Below, piece by piece: positions 20,531-42,723 of a DNA stretch of 64,000 nt. This stretch comes from a virus. The notes below the pieces were generated by a model. The model made no database searches. It saw only the letters and a list, made by a program, of their open reading frames with translations, and was not told the origin of the DNA. Position numbers and translations under genes: made by a program. The stretch covers positions 72,199 to 136,198 of the IMG/VR virus record IMGVR_UViG_3300035670_000034; one strand, given 5' to 3'. Numbering within the stretch: the stretch's first letter is position 1; every line of letters starts with the position of its first letter.

Positions 20531-20779
20531 CTACTTGCTCTCGTCTAGAAAATCAGCGAGCAAGTCGTCGATGGGGACAAGTTTCATCGTCGCCGTGATA
20601 ACGCCGTTCTCGTCAATGCTCGTTGTATCAAGCGTGACGGCTTCCAGCATCGTTGAGGCGAAGTCCAAGCAGGCGTCCCGGTCTTCCTCGCCGACCAACT
20701 TGCCGATGAACTCAGCGAAGTGGTCAAGAACGTTGAGCCTGATTTCCTCTGGGGATAGGTCGCTCATTGTAGACCCCAC
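20531..20779 (-). CDS. acidic hypothetical protein
   Basis: ORF in the operon downstream of the 20971 promoter. Confidence 0.55.
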   Translation of the reverse strand: MGSTMSDLSPEEIRLNVLDHFAEFIGKLVGEEDRDACLDFASTMLEAVTLDTTSIDENGVITATMKLVPIDDLLADFLDESK

Positions 20780-20964
20780 GCCCTAAGCCACGCATTTGCG
20801 ACTGACTCGGCTTGTTCGTTGCTTTGGCATGGAATGTGGAGAATGTGGCTGTCGGAACTGTCGCCCGTTGGGCTACTAATCCAGACTTCCACAAGGTTTC
20901 CGTTGGTTGTGATTGTCGTTGGAATGCCTTTGAGCGCACCCCTAGACGAAATGATTGTGGTCAT
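20764..20964 (-). CDS. hypothetical protein, leaderless
   Basis: ATG 6 nt after TAAGGT of the 20971 promoter copy. Confidence 0.7.
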   Translation of the reverse strand: MTTIISSRGALKGIPTTITTNGNLVEVWISSPTGDSSDSHILHIPCQSNEQAESVANAWLRAWGLQ

Positions 20965-21000
20965 GCCAACACCTTACAGGCAAAAATGGTGTAAGGCAAG

Positions 21001-21927
21001 TTATGCGCCCGCCATTGCCGACAGCCCCGCCCGCGACCGGCGAAGAAGGTGTGGCGCTGCGAAAGCCGTGATAGTCGCCAAGTGAAGTGGCACTATGTCC
21101 TCGTAACTGCCATAACCGCCAGCCATGACGATAACCGTACGGGCCCCGAGATTGAGGATGCGCTCTGCGACCATTGCTTCACGGCGCTCAACGACATCTG
21201 GCTCAATGAATGGGAATACATCCACACCAGCGTTGTAGAACACAATTGCGGGACCGATGGACGCAAGCCTGTTAAGCGCATCGCCAACACCGAGTAGGTA
21301 TCTGTCTGGGTCGTCACACAGAATGGCCTGGCTGTTGTAGTTGCTTTCGTAGCCGTCAAAGTCAGAGGTGGAAAGGTCTACCTGTTTGATTTCTGTACCA
21401 CCGATGTAGTCGTTGGTCCCGCCGCCGAAGTGGGCGTCAAGGTCAAGAATGGCGACTTGCTGCCCTGTAAGTTTCGCAGCGTACATAGCACCAATCGCTA
21501 GCGAGTTCACCGTACAGTAGCCACGACCCACATTCCGACGGGCGTGGTGAAGCCCACTAGAAAGTGAGCATGAATGGTCATAGCCAGCAAGAACATCATC
21601 CACAGCGCACAATACGCCTGCGGTTGAGTTCAGGACTGAGTGATACACGCCGTTATCCCAACTGAATGAGTTGCTCTCCGCCAACGCGCGGGGCCGTCCA
21701 GTCATCACTGCTTGTAAGTACTCAGCATCAACGCCGTCAGCAATAGATGACTGCGCCTTTGCCAGCGCACTAGGAATACTTGCTGGGTCTTTGACCCTCA
21801 CCCACTCGGACAAGCCAACTTCTGGCATTTGTAGCGAGCGAGCAATGTATCGGGATTTCTGGAATGTCTCAAACTGAGTGTCCGTCCCGCAATAATCTTC
21901 GTTCCAATAAACATTCATGTTAGTCAT
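21001..21927 (-). CDS. Zn-dependent histone-deacetylase-superfamily amidohydrolase (HDAC/AcuC/APAH-like)
   Basis: SGLHHA, GYCTVN, LDLDAHFGGGT, YNAGVD and AGGY catalytic motifs all intact. Confidence 0.88.
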   Translation of the reverse strand: MTNMNVYWNEDYCGTDTQFETFQKSRYIARSLQMPEVGLSEWVRVKDPASIPSALAKAQSSIADGVDAEYLQAVMTGRPRALAESNSFSWDNGVYHSVLNSTAGVLCAVDDVLAGYDHSCSLSSGLHHARRNVGRGYCTVNSLAIGAMYAAKLTGQQVAILDLDAHFGGGTNDYIGGTEIKQVDLSTSDFDGYESNYNSQAILCDDPDRYLLGVGDALNRLASIGPAIVFYNAGVDVFPFIEPDVVERREAMVAERILNLGARTVIVMAGGYGSYEDIVPLHLATITAFAAPHLLRRSRAGLSAMAGA

Positions 21928-22022
21928 AGTGATAACAATGATACGGCGCAAGAGGGGTAAAGCCAACCCCCACCAACGCCTCGGGGGGACATTTGGGCGT
22001 TGATGGGGGTGACTTTGTTGCC

Positions 22023-22121
22023 TTACTGCTTTCTAAAGCGAGTAAGAAGCACCGTGACTAGCACGGTTGCCACAATAAGCGAATACGAGACATACTCGCT
22101 AATGCGAATGGTCAAGTCCAC
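22023..22121 (-). CDS. 32-aa single-pass membrane peptide (not in ORF track)
   Basis: MDLTIRISEYVSYSLIVATVLVTVLLTRFRKQ; AAGAAAGGGG SD, downstream of the 22154 promoter copy. Confidence 0.55.
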   Translation of the reverse strand: MDLTIRISEYVSYSLIVATVLVTVLLTRFRKQ

Positions 22122-22243
22122 TTTGTTCCCCCTTTCTTAGTAGGTACGCTATCACCTTACAGGCAATAATGAGATACCGCAACTAGTTCCTTACGACCAG
22201 CCACAAGAAGTAAAAGAATATAAAGGCACCGAAGCCCACAATC

Positions 22244-22429
22244 TCATGCGTCAGCATTGCCGAGGGCCCCGTCTATGCGGGGTATCCACTGTCCGCCAAC
22301 ACGATAGAAGCCCATCAGTTCGGCGTAATCAGTATCATCATGAAACACGACTTCACGGCAATAGTCGCATATCTCAGACTGAGAATATATGCGCTCAACG
22401 GGGCAGGTACAGGTATTTTTGTCTGTCAT
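22244..22429 (-). CDS. small Cys-containing hypothetical protein
   Basis: CTCP...CDYC; follows the LysM gene. Confidence 0.55.
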   Translation of the reverse strand: MTDKNTCTCPVERIYSQSEICDYCREVVFHDDTDYAELMGFYRVGGQWIPRIDGALGNADA

Positions 22430-40663: not shown

Positions 40664-40877
40664 GTGTTGCACCTTACAGGCAATAATTACTTATTCCAAC
40701 CCCCATGTGCGCATCCGCGCGCCATGGAAGACTCATCCTACAGGCATTAATGGGTTAACGCTCGCGAGCCCCGGATATACCAGACGTGCTGACCGTCACA
40801 GACATTGCAGGTTGTCAAACTACGTGGCTATCCACTACGGTGGTGGAAGACAGTTATAACCAATAAGGAGAAACCAC

Positions 40878-41273
40878 ATGAAACCACGGCTAGTTAGTAC
40901 GCCATCAACAGAAGGGGCGCTGCACACAATTGCATATGCCCGTAATAAAGATGGCCGAATTGACCTTGATGCATACAAGGGCCTAACTGGGACTATTGAA
41001 TCAAACAACCTAAAGATTGATGTAAAAATCAACAACGCTCGAGTTCGTTACGGGCATCTCGATTTGAATGTCAGTCCGATGTCCGGGGCTGGCGAGGTAT
41101 GGGTTGAGCGAAAGAATATTGAAATCAACAACGACCCTGCGGCCAAGGCCCCCGTGGCAAAGATGAAAACTCGCAAAATTGACGAATCAAAACCGGAAAA
41201 CGCGTTTCCGAAGAACGACATCAAGGAAATGATTCGGATGATGATTCAGGAAGAGCGCCAAAAGGCCGTCTAA
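40878..41273 (+). CDS. hypothetical protein
   Basis: strong AAGGAG SD; first rightward gene after the divergence point. Confidence 0.7.
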   Translation: MKPRLVSTPSTEGALHTIAYARNKDGRIDLDAYKGLTGTIESNNLKIDVKINNARVRYGHLDLNVSPMSGAGEVWVERKNIEINNDPAAKAPVAKMKTRKIDESKPENAFPKNDIKEMIRMMIQEERQKAV

Positions 41274-41491
41274 TAACGGCCCGGCCGCAAGTCTTCCCGA
41301 AGGTATACCACATCTCCGTCATCTTTGGATTCGATGGCGGAAGATGTGGGAACCTCATCTGTGTCTGCCTTCACAGGGGCCTCTTCTGATAATTCTTCAG
41401 AACTTTCTTCTTCCGCCGCCGGCTGCGGCTCAAAATGAATTCGCTCAAGTTTTTGGTTGGACCCGAGGGCCCCGTGATTGTTCCCGGCCAT
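41270..41491 (-). CDS. acidic hypothetical protein (uncertain)
   Basis: short acidic ORF convergent with 40878-41273. Confidence 0.35.
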   Translation of the reverse strand: MAGNNHGALGSNQKLERIHFEPQPAAEEESSEELSEEAPVKADTDEVPTSSAIESKDDGDVVYLREDLRPGRY

Positions 41492-41528
41492 GTTGTCTTA
41501 CCTCATTATTGCCTGTAACGTGTTTGCC

Positions 41529-41963
41529 ATGCTAAATCTAACAGATGACTACATAGACAGTTTACCTGCGGACACACGACGCATCCCTGATGTTGAGCGT
41601 GGCCTATACGTATTACAGACGTGGCAGAAGAATGGGGCCAGTGGCTCACCTGCTTCATGGCTCAAAAATTACATGATTCGCTCAGAGGGTTTGATGTGGA
41701 TAAATCAAAACATCATCCCAAAACTAGGCGTCGCCATCGTGGCCGAGGAAAAGACGGAAAAACGCAAGGACAAGTACGCCAAGTTGGAGAAACTTGCGCT
41801 GGATAACCTGTATCACGAATTCACGACCCAGCAACTCGCTGATGAGTCGGGGCTCGGCGCACAAACCATTAGCAAGTGGGCAAAGACCACTGGTTACTTC
41901 CGAGTAATAGGGCGTGGCAAGTGGGAAGCCCGCAATCCAAAAGATGACCGCAAAAACGCCTAG
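41529..41963 (+). CDS. hypothetical protein with C-terminal winged-HTH-like segment, leaderless
   Basis: ATG 7 nt after TAACGT (41516-41521); FTTQQLADESGLGAQTISKW. Confidence 0.7.
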   Translation: MLNLTDDYIDSLPADTRRIPDVERGLYVLQTWQKNGASGSPASWLKNYMIRSEGLMWINQNIIPKLGVAIVAEEKTEKRKDKYAKLEKLALDNLYHEFTTQQLADESGLGAQTISKWAKTTGYFRVIGRGKWEARNPKDDRKNA

Positions 41964-42000
41964 GGTTGTCTTAACTCATTATTGCCTGTAAGGTACAAGT

Positions 42001-42723
42001 ATGACAACTACAAACACCACCACCAAACTCCCCGAGTGCTGGCAAGCACTTGAGGATGTACTTACCAACAACATTGACCGAGTCATCTTGTTTGGTCCCC
42101 CAGGGACAGGCAAGACGTACGCAGGCATGAATTTCGGCAACGTGGGTAACGGCTCGTTCCGCATCACCTGCACCGAGGACATGACCAACCTGAACGTAGA
42201 CGGCGCTTTCATGCCGACTAGTGACGGCAAGGCTTTCAAGTGGTATGAGGGTTCTGCTCTTAAGGCATGGCAGGCAGGCGGTCGTCTCGTCGTGGACGAG
42301 ATTGACAAGGCTGGCTCCGACGTGTTCGCCACGCTACTGAACTTCCTTGACTCTCCTGAGTCTGCATCGTGGGAGCATCCTGAGAACGGACAGATTATCC
42401 GTCCCTCCAATGGATTCTCCGCAGTGATGACCACCAACGTTGAGGACATGGACGAATTGCCCGAAGCGTTGGCCGACCGATTCCCTGTTCGGATTCGCAT
42501 CAACCAGCCACATCCCAATGCACTGCGTCGTCTCTCACGAGACCTGCGTGAGGTTGCGGTTAACTACGCCGACGCTGGACGAGACCGAATTTCACTGCGA
42601 ACGTTCATGGCCTTTGACAATCTCCGAAACTCAATGGGCGACGAACGTGCCAGCAAGATTGTCTTTGGGCATCGTGCTGACGGAATCATGGATGCTCTCA
42701 GGGTTAATGCGGTGGCATCGTGA
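42001..42723 (+). CDS. MoxR/CbbQ/NorQ-like AAA+ ATPase, leaderless
   Basis: GPPGTGKT, VVDEIDKA, TTN, ALADRFP; ATG 6 nt after the 41977 promoter. Confidence 0.88.
   Translation: MTTTNTTTKLPECWQALEDVLTNNIDRVILFGPPGTGKTYAGMNFGNVGNGSFRITCTEDMTNLNVDGAFMPTSDGKAFKWYEGSALKAWQAGGRLVVDEIDKAGSDVFATLLNFLDSPESASWEHPENGQIIRPSNGFSAVMTTNVEDMDELPEALADRFPVRIRINQPHPNALRRLSRDLREVAVNYADAGRDRISLRTFMAFDNLRNSMGDERASKIVFGHRADGIMDALRVNAVAS

Follow-up and report, generated by a model that had tools for sequence, protein, structure and literature searches.

Results

The window analysed here is a 64,000-nt stretch (positions 72,199 to 136,198) of the 136,198-bp record IMGVR_UViG_3300035670_000034, which derives from an uncultured virus. 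Within it, about 33 small transcription units are served by 35 near-identical promoter copies, in an array that spans ~23 kb of the 136-kb genome. The 18-nt core of the repeat gives 35 matches with at most three mismatches, compared with 0.04 expected from shuffles, in agreement with the initial annotation, which had reported at least 34 copies. Of these matches, 32 lie on the minus strand and three (25967, 41504 and 41977) on the plus strand. A motif scan of the whole genome and of related phages had also been proposed; over the whole 136,198-bp record, the core is restricted to record positions 91038-114190 (window 18838-41994) and occurs nowhere else, and the relatives hold arrays of their own. 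Across 185,579 prokaryote species genomes, the core has no matches other than 8 single ones, scattered over non-actinobacterial records. The copies and associated features are as follows, in window coordinates and with leaderless assignments being predictions.

18829..18867, minus: P18838, no ORF downstream; antisense into the 3' end of a 3355-aa giant gene
20962..21000, minus: P20971, ATG at 6 nt; 66-aa gene, then 82 aa, SSB (20013-20525) and 103 aa
22145..22183, minus: P22154, 23-nt leader with GGGGG SD; 32-aa membrane peptide, then HDAC-like gene (21001-21966)
22770..22808, minus: P22779, leaderless, 110-aa gene
23010..23048, minus: P23019, leaderless, 56-aa gene
23143..40848, plus: second motif ACGGTGGYGGAA, ten copies, antisense to the cassettes
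23357..23395, minus: P23366, leaderless, 61-aa gene
23841..23879, minus: P23850, leaderless, 58-aa gene
24943..24981, minus: P24952, leaderless, 71-aa gene
25437..25475, minus: P25446, leaderless, 45-aa Cys-rich gene; paralogue of 25991-26128
25915..25953, minus: P25924 (TAAGAT), leaderless, 81-aa gene; back to back with P25967
25955..25993, plus: P25967, leaderless, 45-aa gene
26966..27226, minus: XRE-type HTH gene within the array
27537..27575, minus: P27546, ATC at start position; 65-nt structured leader, 45-aa K/R-rich ORF, then XRE operon
28326..28364, minus: P28335 (TAAGAT), GTC at start position; GC-rich leader of ~83 nt
28997..29035, minus: P29006, leaderless, 83-aa gene
29515..29553, minus: P29524, leaderless, 106-aa gene
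29703..29741, minus: P29712, leaderless, 53-aa gene
30423..30461, minus: P30432, inside the last codons of gene 30428-30811; leaderless 45-aa gene
31168..31206, minus: P31177, leaderless, 120-aa gene
32317..32355, minus: P32326 (TAAGTT), leaderless, 169-aa gene
32717..32755, minus: P32726, leaderless, 119-aa gene, GTG start
33282..33320, minus: P33291, leaderless, 175-aa gene
34067..34105, minus: P34076, leaderless, 77-aa gene
34312..34350, minus: P34321, leaderless, 72-aa gene
34975..35013, minus: P34984, leaderless 9-codon mini-ORF; its stop abuts the ATG of gene 34526-34948
35561..35599, minus: P35570, leaderless, 150-aa gene
36184..36222, minus: P36193 (TAAGAT), leaderless, 101-aa gene
36611..36649, minus: P36620, leaderless, 64-aa gene; orthologue in relative L012 has identical flanks and another spacer word
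37299..37337, minus: P37308, leaderless, 159-aa gene
38152..38190, minus: P38161, leaderless, 124-aa gene
38942..38980, minus: P38951, leaderless, 92-aa gene
39820..39858, minus: P39829 (TAAGTT), leaderless, 93-aa gene
40661..40700, minus: P40671, ATG at 7 nt; 92-aa gene
40726..40764, minus: P40735, degenerate copy, 3 mismatches; 64 nt upstream of P40671
41492..41531, plus: P41504 (TAACGT), ATG at 7 nt; 144-aa winged-helix protein (41529-41963)
41965..42003, plus: P41977, leaderless MoxR-type AAA ATPase (42001-42723), then vWA-like 517-aa gene

The consensus is (a/g)GT(T)G-nnn-TA-nnn-CATTATTGCCTG-TAAGGT-nnnn-G(T/C)-ATG, with 17 nt between TTG and TAAGGT. A start codon follows the hexamer by exactly 6 nt in 28 copies (27 ATG and one GTG) and by 7 nt in two (40671 and 41504), the same counts as before, and ATG accounts for 29 of these 30 putative leaderless starts. 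The other five copies (18838, 22154, 27546, 28335 and 40735) depart from the leaderless pattern. Hexamer variants are TAAGAT (three copies), TAAGTT (two), TAACGT (one) and TAGGAT (one, the degenerate copy 40735), the first three keeping TAnnnT as already described. The logo has sharp edges, eight spacer positions without a single deviation in 35 copies adjoining positions that carry no information, and it also displays a pyrimidine at -1 and an A at +1. The lineage-specific half of the spacer word (0/210 deviations) is better kept than either the T of the -35 or the inner positions of the -10.

Thirty of the ~60 genes in the region are promoter-proximal and most likely leaderless, and the others are internal, with GGAG/GAGG-type Shine-Dalgarno (SD) sites 5-10 nt upstream, of which none is found at promoter-proximal genes. 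The initial claim that every cassette is fronted by a promoter thus holds for these 30 genes but not for the internal ones, nor does its leaderless layout extend to the five off-pattern copies. Over their first 36 nt, the proposed mRNAs have almost no structure (mean -2.1 vs -7.9 kcal/mol in internal windows) and are A-rich (0.44 vs 0.25). Many translation starts, also those with leaders, share low structure and A-richness. Roughly half of the promoters touch or overlap the preceding gene's stop codon, and the remainder come after structured gaps. The copies of ACGGTGGYGGAA lie at 23143, 25633, 28492, 29856, 31363, 34473, 35762, 37764, 40022 and 40837; nine are 85-176 nt upstream of a promoter, and that at 37764 is 414 nt from the nearest one.

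Almost all array products are ORFans, and they may serve in host takeover. Of 152 array protein families in six genomes, 101 occur in a single genome only. Several rearranged or inserted blocks begin with a promoter and stop short of the following one, other junctions fall away from promoters, and cassette order is largely collinear among relatives (Spearman 0.76-0.99). Shuffling of cassettes through micro-homology at the core, as initially suggested, would agree with the extreme turnover and the promoter-bounded blocks, but not with the collinear order or the junctions elsewhere.

The comparison set comprised 53 related contigs, with array-bearing relatives reached via the neighbouring 517-aa protein. 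Their arrays contain 18-34 copies over 15-26 kb in the same TTG-17-TAnnnT-6/7-ATG layout, and at least six lineages keep TTGnnn-17-TAnnnT-6/7-ATG. The hexamers of the relatives are TAGACT/TAAACT/TAGAAT, TACnnT, TAGnGT and CAyAAT, and each lineage has its own spacer word, invariant within the genome. In a ~400-nt segment that is 94% identical to L012, four of six word positions and one -10 position are switched to the own-genome type. Variable positions in the remaining 11 orthologous pairs of promoters have a similarity of 0.34, compared with 0.30 in random pairs (p=0.17); as they are no more alike than random pairs, vertical descent of individual promoters is not demonstrable. The word of L026 and L028 is the reverse complement of the word of this phage (13-14 of 16 identical; at most 1 in 20,000 shuffles as good), with the -35 and the ATG on the other side of the inverted word. 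In L027 and L030, the invariant word adjoins the -35 rather than the -10.

Two WhiB genes lie in the genome outside the array and point to an actinobacterial host. The genome yielded no detectable Sigma70_r2, T7-type RNA polymerase, integrase or resolvase, and this ~136-kb phage is probably virulent. PF00940 had no match in the genome, although the same search was also matchless in control genomes, and several giant proteins have no recognised domains and no solved-structure relatives that we could find.

No reader of the word was found among the DNA-binding proteins examined. The XRE protein (26966-27226), initially put forward as a spacer binder, keeps the same recognition helix in three lineages with different words and is also missing from two array-bearing records, and we reject it in this role. 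Neither the 144-aa winged-helix protein nor a small HA+sigma4-like protein shows co-variation with the word. The WhiBs and RHH proteins, named as binders as well, fare no better, both WhiB genes being outside the array and none of 62 array proteins matching an RHH family. A sigma-70 region-4 domain in a putative cargo polyprotein of the head operon offers a new lead. This 877-aa protein (record positions 53923-56556) matches Sigma70_r4 at aa 414-456 with 42.5-44.8 bits (cut-off 24.1), and the best solved relatives of the module are region 4 of RpoS, SigF and SigA. The module is bounded by a GLASST linker, with a second helix-turn-helix-like domain and a disordered linker before it, and the gene shares an operon with a prohead protease fusion (Peptidase_S78). 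Unlike in all other DNA-binding proteins examined, its recognition helix varies by lineage (SKERARQI, TRERANQL, TKTRVNQL). The predicted structure is of low confidence (pLDDT 62), only two genomes have both module and array, and seven long related records gave no orthologue.

Discussion

The hexamer is very probably a -10 box feeding leaderless mRNAs, since relatives keep the geometry with hexamers that cannot be SD sites, and the initial annotation appears to have been right on this point. With its fixed distance of 6 nt to the ATG, its AAGG, its preference for ATG and its absence from host genomes, the repeat could alternatively be mainly a translation signal, either an SD site or a start-associated sequence (SAS) as in Cluster K mycobacteriophages (PMC3203893). 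Like the present repeat, SAS are repeated asymmetric motifs placed a few nt before non-structural starts, strongly favour ATG and are not present in host genomes, but they have an AGGAG SD core without -35/-10 geometry and are conserved across subclusters, whereas here the hexamer seems to act as TAnnnT and the word is lineage-specific. We consider a translation signal very improbable, given that TACnnT, TAGnGT, TAGACT and CAyAAT of the relatives cannot pair with the anti-SD, that the conserved part is T-A-n-n-n-T plus a TTG 17 nt upstream, and that real SDs are present at internal genes of the same array. In this phage, read-through transcripts could use TAAGGT as a weak SD. Mycobacteria are known to have TANNNT -10 boxes and many leaderless mRNAs (M. 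tuberculosis TSS map, PMC3898074), and transcripts of their leaderless sigmaA promoters likewise begin on the start codon. However, those promoters have no -35 consensus and no conserved spacer, in contrast to the TTG at 17 nt and the invariant spacer common to 35 copies here.

Taken as a whole, the explanation that we favour, with some reserve, is one of sigmaA-type leaderless early promoters combined with a phage switch that docks on the word. The presumably early region would consist of 35 promoters (-35 TTGnnn, 17-nt spacer, -10 TAAGGT) read by host RNA polymerase, with host sigmaA as the likely reader of the -35 and -10. In 30 copies the start-codon A lies 6-7 nt past the -10, where transcription normally begins, so that transcripts would start on the start codon without a leader or SD site and be translated by 5'-terminal AUG initiation, with internal genes translated from ordinary SDs. 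Because a leaderless start would serve the first gene only, a promoter would be placed before every second gene on average, and with about half of the promoters at a prior stop codon the transcripts would be nested. SigmaA recognition would not require the 12-nt word (-24 to -13), which appears to be an addition peculiar to each genome. Its most likely role is that of a docking site for a phage-specific protein acting as a joint switch on all early promoters, either through shut-off by an early or middle product or through activation by a factor delivered with the DNA.

That the spacer is conserved beyond the needs of sigmaA, as first claimed, is borne out by the invariant lineage words, by the switched word in the 94%-identical segment and by the inverted word. 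A word found at neither a fixed orientation nor a fixed position fits better with a separate DNA-binding factor than with polymerase contacts or an RNA element, and the own word in the 94%-identical segment together with the inverted word would favour a phage-specific reader over RNA polymerase contacts. We tentatively propose the 12-letter word as the site of such a factor, whose existence and nature we infer.

A spacer without any reader could also stay uniform in sigmaA leaderless promoters by concerted evolution, through promoter copy-and-paste at gene gain and short-tract gene conversion among the ~35 copies, with lineage differences as founder effects. The very high gene turnover, the blocks bounded by promoters and the lack of detectable conservation at variable positions of orthologous promoters are all consistent with this, and the switched word could come from short-tract gene conversion, its tract bounded by bases common to both words. 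We nevertheless regard this route as unlikely: neighbouring positions should homogenise too, yet no information is left 1-3 nt from invariant ones, the lineage-specific half is kept better than the -35 T and the inner -10, and the word is inverted or shifted to the -35 in other lineages while still invariant per genome. The word might instead be read by a virion-delivered factor, the region-4 domain being released from the 877-aa polyprotein, docking on the word (or on the -35 plus the word) and recruiting or re-aiming host polymerase at time zero. T4 Alt and the N4 virion RNA polymerase are delivered along with the DNA of their phages and give early transcription a head start. The present candidate would similarly be a pre-made packaged factor acting on early promoters, carried inside a multi-module cargo protein, but it is a predicted sigma region-4 DNA-binding domain. 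Need for such a factor before any phage gene is expressed would explain a private word in early promoters, and the Sigma70_r4 match, the GLASST boundary, the protease operon, the lineage-variable helix and the lack of a detected region 2 are in line with it. However, packaging, cleavage and ejection are argued from gene context, the module is of low model confidence and seldom accompanies an array, and a region-4 domain is expected to read a -35-like hexamer rather than a 12-nt word, making this quite an unlikely account. The term 'sigma' is absent from the text of the polyvalent-protein survey (PMC5512222). Finally, a contiguous invariant stretch of 18 nt recalls promoters of single-subunit polymerases, and the giant virion proteins without recognised domains leave room for a phage-encoded RNA polymerase (T7-, N4- or crAss-type), perhaps as a module of one of them. 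Such a polymerase is highly improbable, as the last 6 nt ahead of the start vary and the only bases common to all lineages are a sigma-type TTG and TAnnnT at canonical spacing; the PF00940 search and the lack of solved-structure relatives for the giant proteins also speak against it, the former within the limits of its matchless controls.

No paper describing such an array was found in the literature. Closest in layout are the promoter-early stem-loops (PeSLs) of the T4-type phages RB49/phi1, PST and nt-1 (PMC2839356, PMC4122927), dozens of near-identical sigma70-type early promoters directly in front of small ORFan genes. They cluster, as here, in a hyperplastic region where relatives differ by much gene gain and loss. 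However, PeSLs have an AT-rich UP region, their motif includes a stem-loop terminator, and an SD precedes the start codon, whereas the present promoters have no SD, half of them abut the prior stop without a hairpin, and the spacer is invariant per genome and rewritten between lineages. In the present array, recombination at the repeats or mini-circles would be hypothetical. The operators and stoperators of Cluster A mycobacteriophage immunity repressors (PMC6550527, PMC9283540) are likewise asymmetric ~13-bp sites, 20-36 per genome, in one orientation relative to transcription and with a consensus that differs among related phages. Stoperators, however, lie mostly outside promoters, block elongation and belong to temperate phages with a known repressor, whereas here every site is within a promoter and neither integrase nor repressor was found in the genome. 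The layout that is kept, together with a private word in each virus, points to a virus-specific switch that would sit inside a common host-type promoter.

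A repeated promoter ahead of probably leaderless genes

The promoter core (18 nt, at most three mismatches) is present in 35 copies, against 0.04 expected. Across the entire 136,198-bp IMG/VR virus record, which is 91% complete and of which the window is the right-hand 64 kb, a motif scan finds the core solely at window positions 18838-41994, with 32 copies on the minus strand and three (25967, 41504 and 41977) on the plus strand. The aligned copies give the consensus (a/g)GT(T)G, three free positions, TA, three free positions, the 12-nt word CATTATTGCCTG, TAAGGT, four free positions, G, T/C, ATG. 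Within the spacer, eight positions show no variation in any of the 35 copies, and the positions adjoining them carry zero information. The -10 hexamer is of the TANNNT type, its T, A and T being fixed in every copy and its inner positions variable, and it lies at a constant 17 nt from a -35 element made up of T (33/35), T (25/35, with A in 7) and G (35/35). Position -1 is T or C in 34 copies. A start codon follows the hexamer after 6 nt in 28 copies (27 ATG, 1 GTG) and after 7 nt in two. The alignment thus reproduces all of the counts, the spacing and the hexamer variants reported in the initial annotation.

Promoter copies that depart from the common arrangement, named by core position
P18838: 18838, without an open reading frame, pointing antisense into the last part of the 3355-aa gene
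P22154: 22154, leader of 23 nt with a Shine-Dalgarno sequence
P27546: leader at 27475-27539, minus strand, ATC in place of the start codon, 65-nt structured leader ahead of the XRE operon
P28335: 28335, GTC in place of the start codon, GC-rich leader
P40735: 40735, degenerate copy, in tandem

In the predicted fold of the P27546 leader, ATCAGGC pairs with GCCTGAT and a run of six C with a run of six G; a 45-aa K/R-rich ORF lies downstream, followed by the XRE operon. The GC-rich leader of P28335 falls, together with a small signal-peptide-like ORF, in a possibly foreign patch at 28000-30000, whose G+C content is about 60% compared with about 52% in the remaining array. Two paralogous 45-aa Cys-rich genes, 25302-25439 (minus) and 25991-26128 (plus), are oppositely oriented with one promoter copy each, and the promoters at 25924 and 25967 stand back to back with 25 nt between them. 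Immediately left of the window, at 70239 (minus) and 70243 (plus) of the whole record, are divergent leaderless-type promoter-like sites that lack the spacer word, one of which precedes a 339-aa gene. A generic promoter scan left TAAGGT unscored and flagged mostly AATAAT on the strand opposite the word; these flags were not counted as evidence of antisense promoters.

The same architecture in other letters

Relatives were found through a conserved 517-aa vWA-like protein adjoining the array, which gave 53 loci at 24-68% identity. In extended contigs their arrays hold 18-34 promoter copies across 15-26 kb, and TTG stands 17 nt 5' of the hexamer in five further lineages.

Early promoters of related viral lineages
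L012: word CATTATGACCGA, hexamer TA(G/A)A(A/C)T, ATG after 6-9 nt
G1 (L016/L017): word ACCATTAGTACCGC, hexamers TAAGGT, TACACT, TACAGT and TAACCT, ATG after 6-7 nt
G3 (L019): word CCTAATAACGGA, hexamer TACnnT, ATG after 7 nt
G4 (L020): word TCTTATTACGG, hexamer TAGnGT, ATG after 7 nt
G5 (L026/L028): word CTTACAnGG, hexamer CAyAAT, ATG after 6 nt

The features constant from lineage to lineage are T-A-n-n-n-T, TTG placed at 17 nt, a pyrimidine preceding the A of ATG and the distance of 6-7 nt, a combination typical of sigmaA promoters with transcripts that begin on the start codon. Promoters of this kind, driven by sigmaA and with the transcript starting at the start codon, are found in mycobacteria (PMC3898074). 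The comparison also upholds the earlier reading of the TAAGGT-type hexamer as a -10 box rather than a Shine-Dalgarno sequence, since the relatives keep TAnnnT and TTG at 17 nt without Shine-Dalgarno potential. An interpretation as a Shine-Dalgarno or start-associated sequence fails in that the relatives' hexamers are unable to pair with 16S rRNA. The starts of promoter-proximal genes are almost exclusively ATG, and the first 36 nt of the predicted messages are A-rich and nearly free of structure, both of which agree with leaderless translation without proving it. Taken together, the sequence comparisons provide good support for the core acting as a set of host-type promoters for predicted leaderless early mRNAs. 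In the more distant L054, the conserved promoters are followed by a 17-nt leader and AAGGAG, and the leaderless form is therefore not universal within the family. In the distant relatives L037, L021 and L047, 26-44 copies per ~20 kb of asymmetric 11-17-mers (ACTTATCTAGT, AGTTATCTATTAG, TTACATTATCCTTTAGT) replace the leaderless promoters; they are mostly in one orientation, some in tandem, and stoperator-like.

A spacer word private to each lineage

Copies from one genome differ less in the word than in the -35 element or the inner positions of the -10 box; from genome to genome the word is rewritten. This is seen at the promoter at 36620, where a ~400-nt stretch that takes in the 30 nt before the word shares 94% identity with L012; at four of six word positions and at one in the -10 box, however, each of the two genomes shows its own type. 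In L026/L028 the word is that of this phage reverse-complemented (13-14 of 16 positions identical, equalled by at most 1 in 20,000 shuffles), with the -35 element and ATG on the opposite side of it, so that the -10 box is supplied by the word's other end. In L027 and L030 the invariant word adjoins the -35 element instead. Neither contacts with polymerase nor a role at the RNA level readily accounts for a word that is fixed per genome while its orientation and its placement with respect to the polymerase vary. The initial annotation had doubted that sigmaA alone would conserve the spacer, and this doubt is supported. On sequence grounds, the behaviour of the word fits a separate sequence-specific DNA-binding factor.

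A host origin of the word is ruled out, as the 185,579 species representatives searched include no actinobacterial genome with a match to it. Concerted evolution, which would keep the word uniform with no factor reading it, remains a rival to a DNA-binding factor. In its favor, vertical descent of single promoters finds no support, as the variable positions of orthologues are saturated in all but one pair (36620 and L012), and conservation at the variable promoter positions of orthologous pairs is not significant. However, concerted evolution predicts that neighboring positions should be homogenized as well, and none are around the invariant spacer positions. The private spacer word is the new component of the array.

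Candidate readers of the word and a second motif

The XRE-type HTH protein encoded inside the array (26966-27226, minus) had been put forward as a possible binder of the spacer. It is rejected as the reader: three lineages, each with a different word, have the same recognition helix in this protein, and two records with complete arrays lack its gene. Three other proteins were rejected as readers. The 3355-aa protein has an HTH module (aa 3077-3266) that its G1 orthologue lacks. A 144-aa winged-helix protein (41529-41963), the product of a leaderless gene conserved in nearly all relatives, has nearly the same helix across lineages with unrelated words; its predicted fold comprises an N-terminal helical domain and a winged helix (pLDDT 87.5), with only weak matches to winged-helix structures in the PDB. 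A 126-aa protein (44979-45359, minus) with an HA domain and a sigma4-like HTH has a recognition helix, LSRQR(V/I)HQI(V/I), that is near-invariant across 13 lineages; its gene overlaps a 186-aa plus-strand ORF that is probably spurious. No array protein was found to co-vary with the word, and none is unusually alike between this phage and the lineage with the inverted word.

Outside the window, the 877-aa putative cargo polyprotein of the head/structural operon (53923-56556 of the whole record) contains a Sigma70 region-4 domain at aa 414-456, which scores 42.5-44.8 bits, above the Pfam threshold, and is bordered by one GLxSST linker. Further parts of this protein are a second HTH-like domain, a Zeta-toxin-like kinase domain (aa 649-795) and GLxSxT linkers. 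The region-4 recognition helix varies among lineages, and the structure model of the module is poor. Module and array occur together in two genomes alone, the other contigs with the module being without an early region. As a factor that would be ejected along with the DNA, the module is a doubtful candidate. A wider scheme, which we likewise consider improbable, would give each lineage of these lake actinophages a private early-promoter code in which host-type -35 and -10 elements are fused to a 12-nt word. The reader would be a fast-evolving phage factor present at DNA entry, with the region-4 module of the head-packaged cargo polyprotein as the candidate, and the ejected piece of sigma factor would jump-start early transcription and insulate it from related competitors.

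A second motif, ACGGTGG(T/C)GGAA, is preceded at 5-6 nt by a 4-6-mer that is specific to the lineage (here CTAT).

Copies of the second motif
Plus strand: 23143, 25633, 28492, 29856, 31363, 34473, 35762, 37764, 40022, 40837, 44716, 45441, 46341

In the seven lineages examined, all copies but one (25975 in G5) lie on the strand of the rightward genes. Within the leftward arrays the motif runs antisense, in most cases 75-200 nt before an early promoter and often beside a hairpin; right of the array it stands 22-30 nt ahead of start codons. The 12-mer is kept across lineages with differing early-promoter words. It may represent either a factor site or a second promoter class, the latter serving middle genes or shutting off early units from the antisense strand, and the 144-aa winged-helix and 126-aa HA/sigma4-like proteins would be better partners for this family-wide motif than for the word.

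Genes of the array and their turnover

By a codon-usage score trained on the genome's long genes, the region at 18.7-42.7 kb holds ~60 genes, 30 of them promoter-proximal; the remaining, internal genes carry Shine-Dalgarno sites of the GGAG/GAGG type. The stop codon of the preceding gene is abutted or overlapped by 14 of 30 minus-strand promoters (gap of -27 to +4 nt), so that upstream transcripts must read through those promoters, and the other minus-strand promoters are preceded by structured gaps of 100-380 nt. Pfam matches among 62 products are limited to SSB, a histone-deacetylase-like protein, one XRE-type HTH, KTSC, LysM and a few DUFs. Two WhiB genes located outside the array suggest that the host is an actinobacterium. 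Searches of the genome gave no hit for Sigma70 region 2, T7-type polymerase, integrase, resolvase or other tyrosine or serine recombinase, the absence of a T7-type polymerase being weak evidence because the same search matched none of the control genomes. The window contains no tRNA genes or Rfam families, a near-identity DNA search against deposited phages gave no match, and the exact core yields three chance singletons across IMG/VR and nothing more.

A leaderless mini-ORF at 34948-34977 (minus), 9-14 codons long across lineages and rich in Thr and Lys, has a stop codon that overlaps or abuts the ATG of a conserved 140-aa gene (34526-34948), and this arrangement is retained in five lineages (this phage, L012, L017, L019 and L020). 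The perfect DnaA-box word TTATCCACA is present in seven copies, against 0.38 expected.

Copies of the DnaA-box word
Plus strand: 25493, 25515, 31249, 34359
Minus strand: 34371
Further copies: 14826, 41695

Five of the seven lie in array gaps directly upstream of early promoters, one pair is inverted, and the word recurs in relatives.

The arrays of six genomes comprise 152 protein families, of which 101 occur in a single genome and 33 in at least three; in 20 of these 33, the status as promoter-proximal or internal is uniform. Against the closest relative, several of the differences concern whole promoter-led blocks, among them a 1.2-kb indel of two cassettes, an exchange of the cassettes at 30808 and 31810, and loss of the cassette at 32360; other junctions fall between internal genes and not at promoters. 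The rank order of shared genes is well preserved (Spearman 0.76-0.99), and conserved adjacencies drop with distance from 14/19 to 3/9. The initial proposal that cassettes may be shuffled at the core finds only partial support: gain and loss are rapid and some blocks are bounded by promoters, but the order is largely collinear and other junctions lie elsewhere. The picture suggested by these gene comparisons is one of fast gain and loss upon a collinear backbone. Recombination at promoters would be compatible with this pattern but is not evidenced by it, because the non-coding DNA is unalignable at this divergence.

Comparison with known systems and significance

The functionally closest system is PeSL of T4-type phages (PMC2839356, PMC4122927), which comes with a Shine-Dalgarno sequence and a built-in stem-loop and without a private spacer. 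As in PeSL, a strong sigma70-like early promoter is repeated ahead of ORFans in a hyperplastic region. Unlike in PeSL, a stem-loop terminator is not part of each motif here, many promoters directly adjoining or overlapping the upstream stop codon, and no Shine-Dalgarno sequence separates the promoter from an ATG or GTG that lies 6-7 nt past the -10 box. As for the indels and replacements bounded by the repeats, and the mini-circles, that mark PeSL, some rearranged blocks here are promoter-bounded and others are not, in a largely collinear order. For numerous asymmetric sites with a lineage-specific consensus, the closest parallel is provided by the operators and stoperators of Cluster A phages (PMC6550527, PMC9283540), which also resemble the present sites in their single orientation relative to transcription. 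Those phages are temperate, with a known repressor and sites mostly outside promoters (PMC6550527, PMC9283540). In contrast, neither integrase nor resolvase was found here, the XRE helix is unchanged across words, and no array protein co-varies with the word. The start-associated sequences (SAS) of Cluster K (PMC3203893) are similar in appearance, but include the Shine-Dalgarno core. They are conserved across related clusters, whereas the word here is lineage-specific and the relatives' hexamers have no Shine-Dalgarno potential. Unlike integron arrays, with their integrase, attC-type sites and promoterless cassettes, the array is found without a recombinase and has a promoter for each unit.

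Taken singly, both repeated early promoters and leaderless genes are known. A full-text literature search for leaderless early-promoter arrays in actinophages found no description of them, and the literature searched describes neither a phage with a whole early programme of ~30 leaderless one-promoter units nor an invariant spacer word rewritten in every related lineage. The arrays are dense stores of small ORFan early proteins, which likely have host-takeover functions. The sigma region-4 domain of the putative cargo polyprotein, if confirmed, would represent a type of ejected transcription factor that is new. Should a phage factor read the word, the arrays would offer a naturally occurring collection of orthogonal promoter-regulator pairs for actinobacteria, and promoter specificity would be evolving in the manner of immunity specificity in a phage without detectable lysogeny genes.
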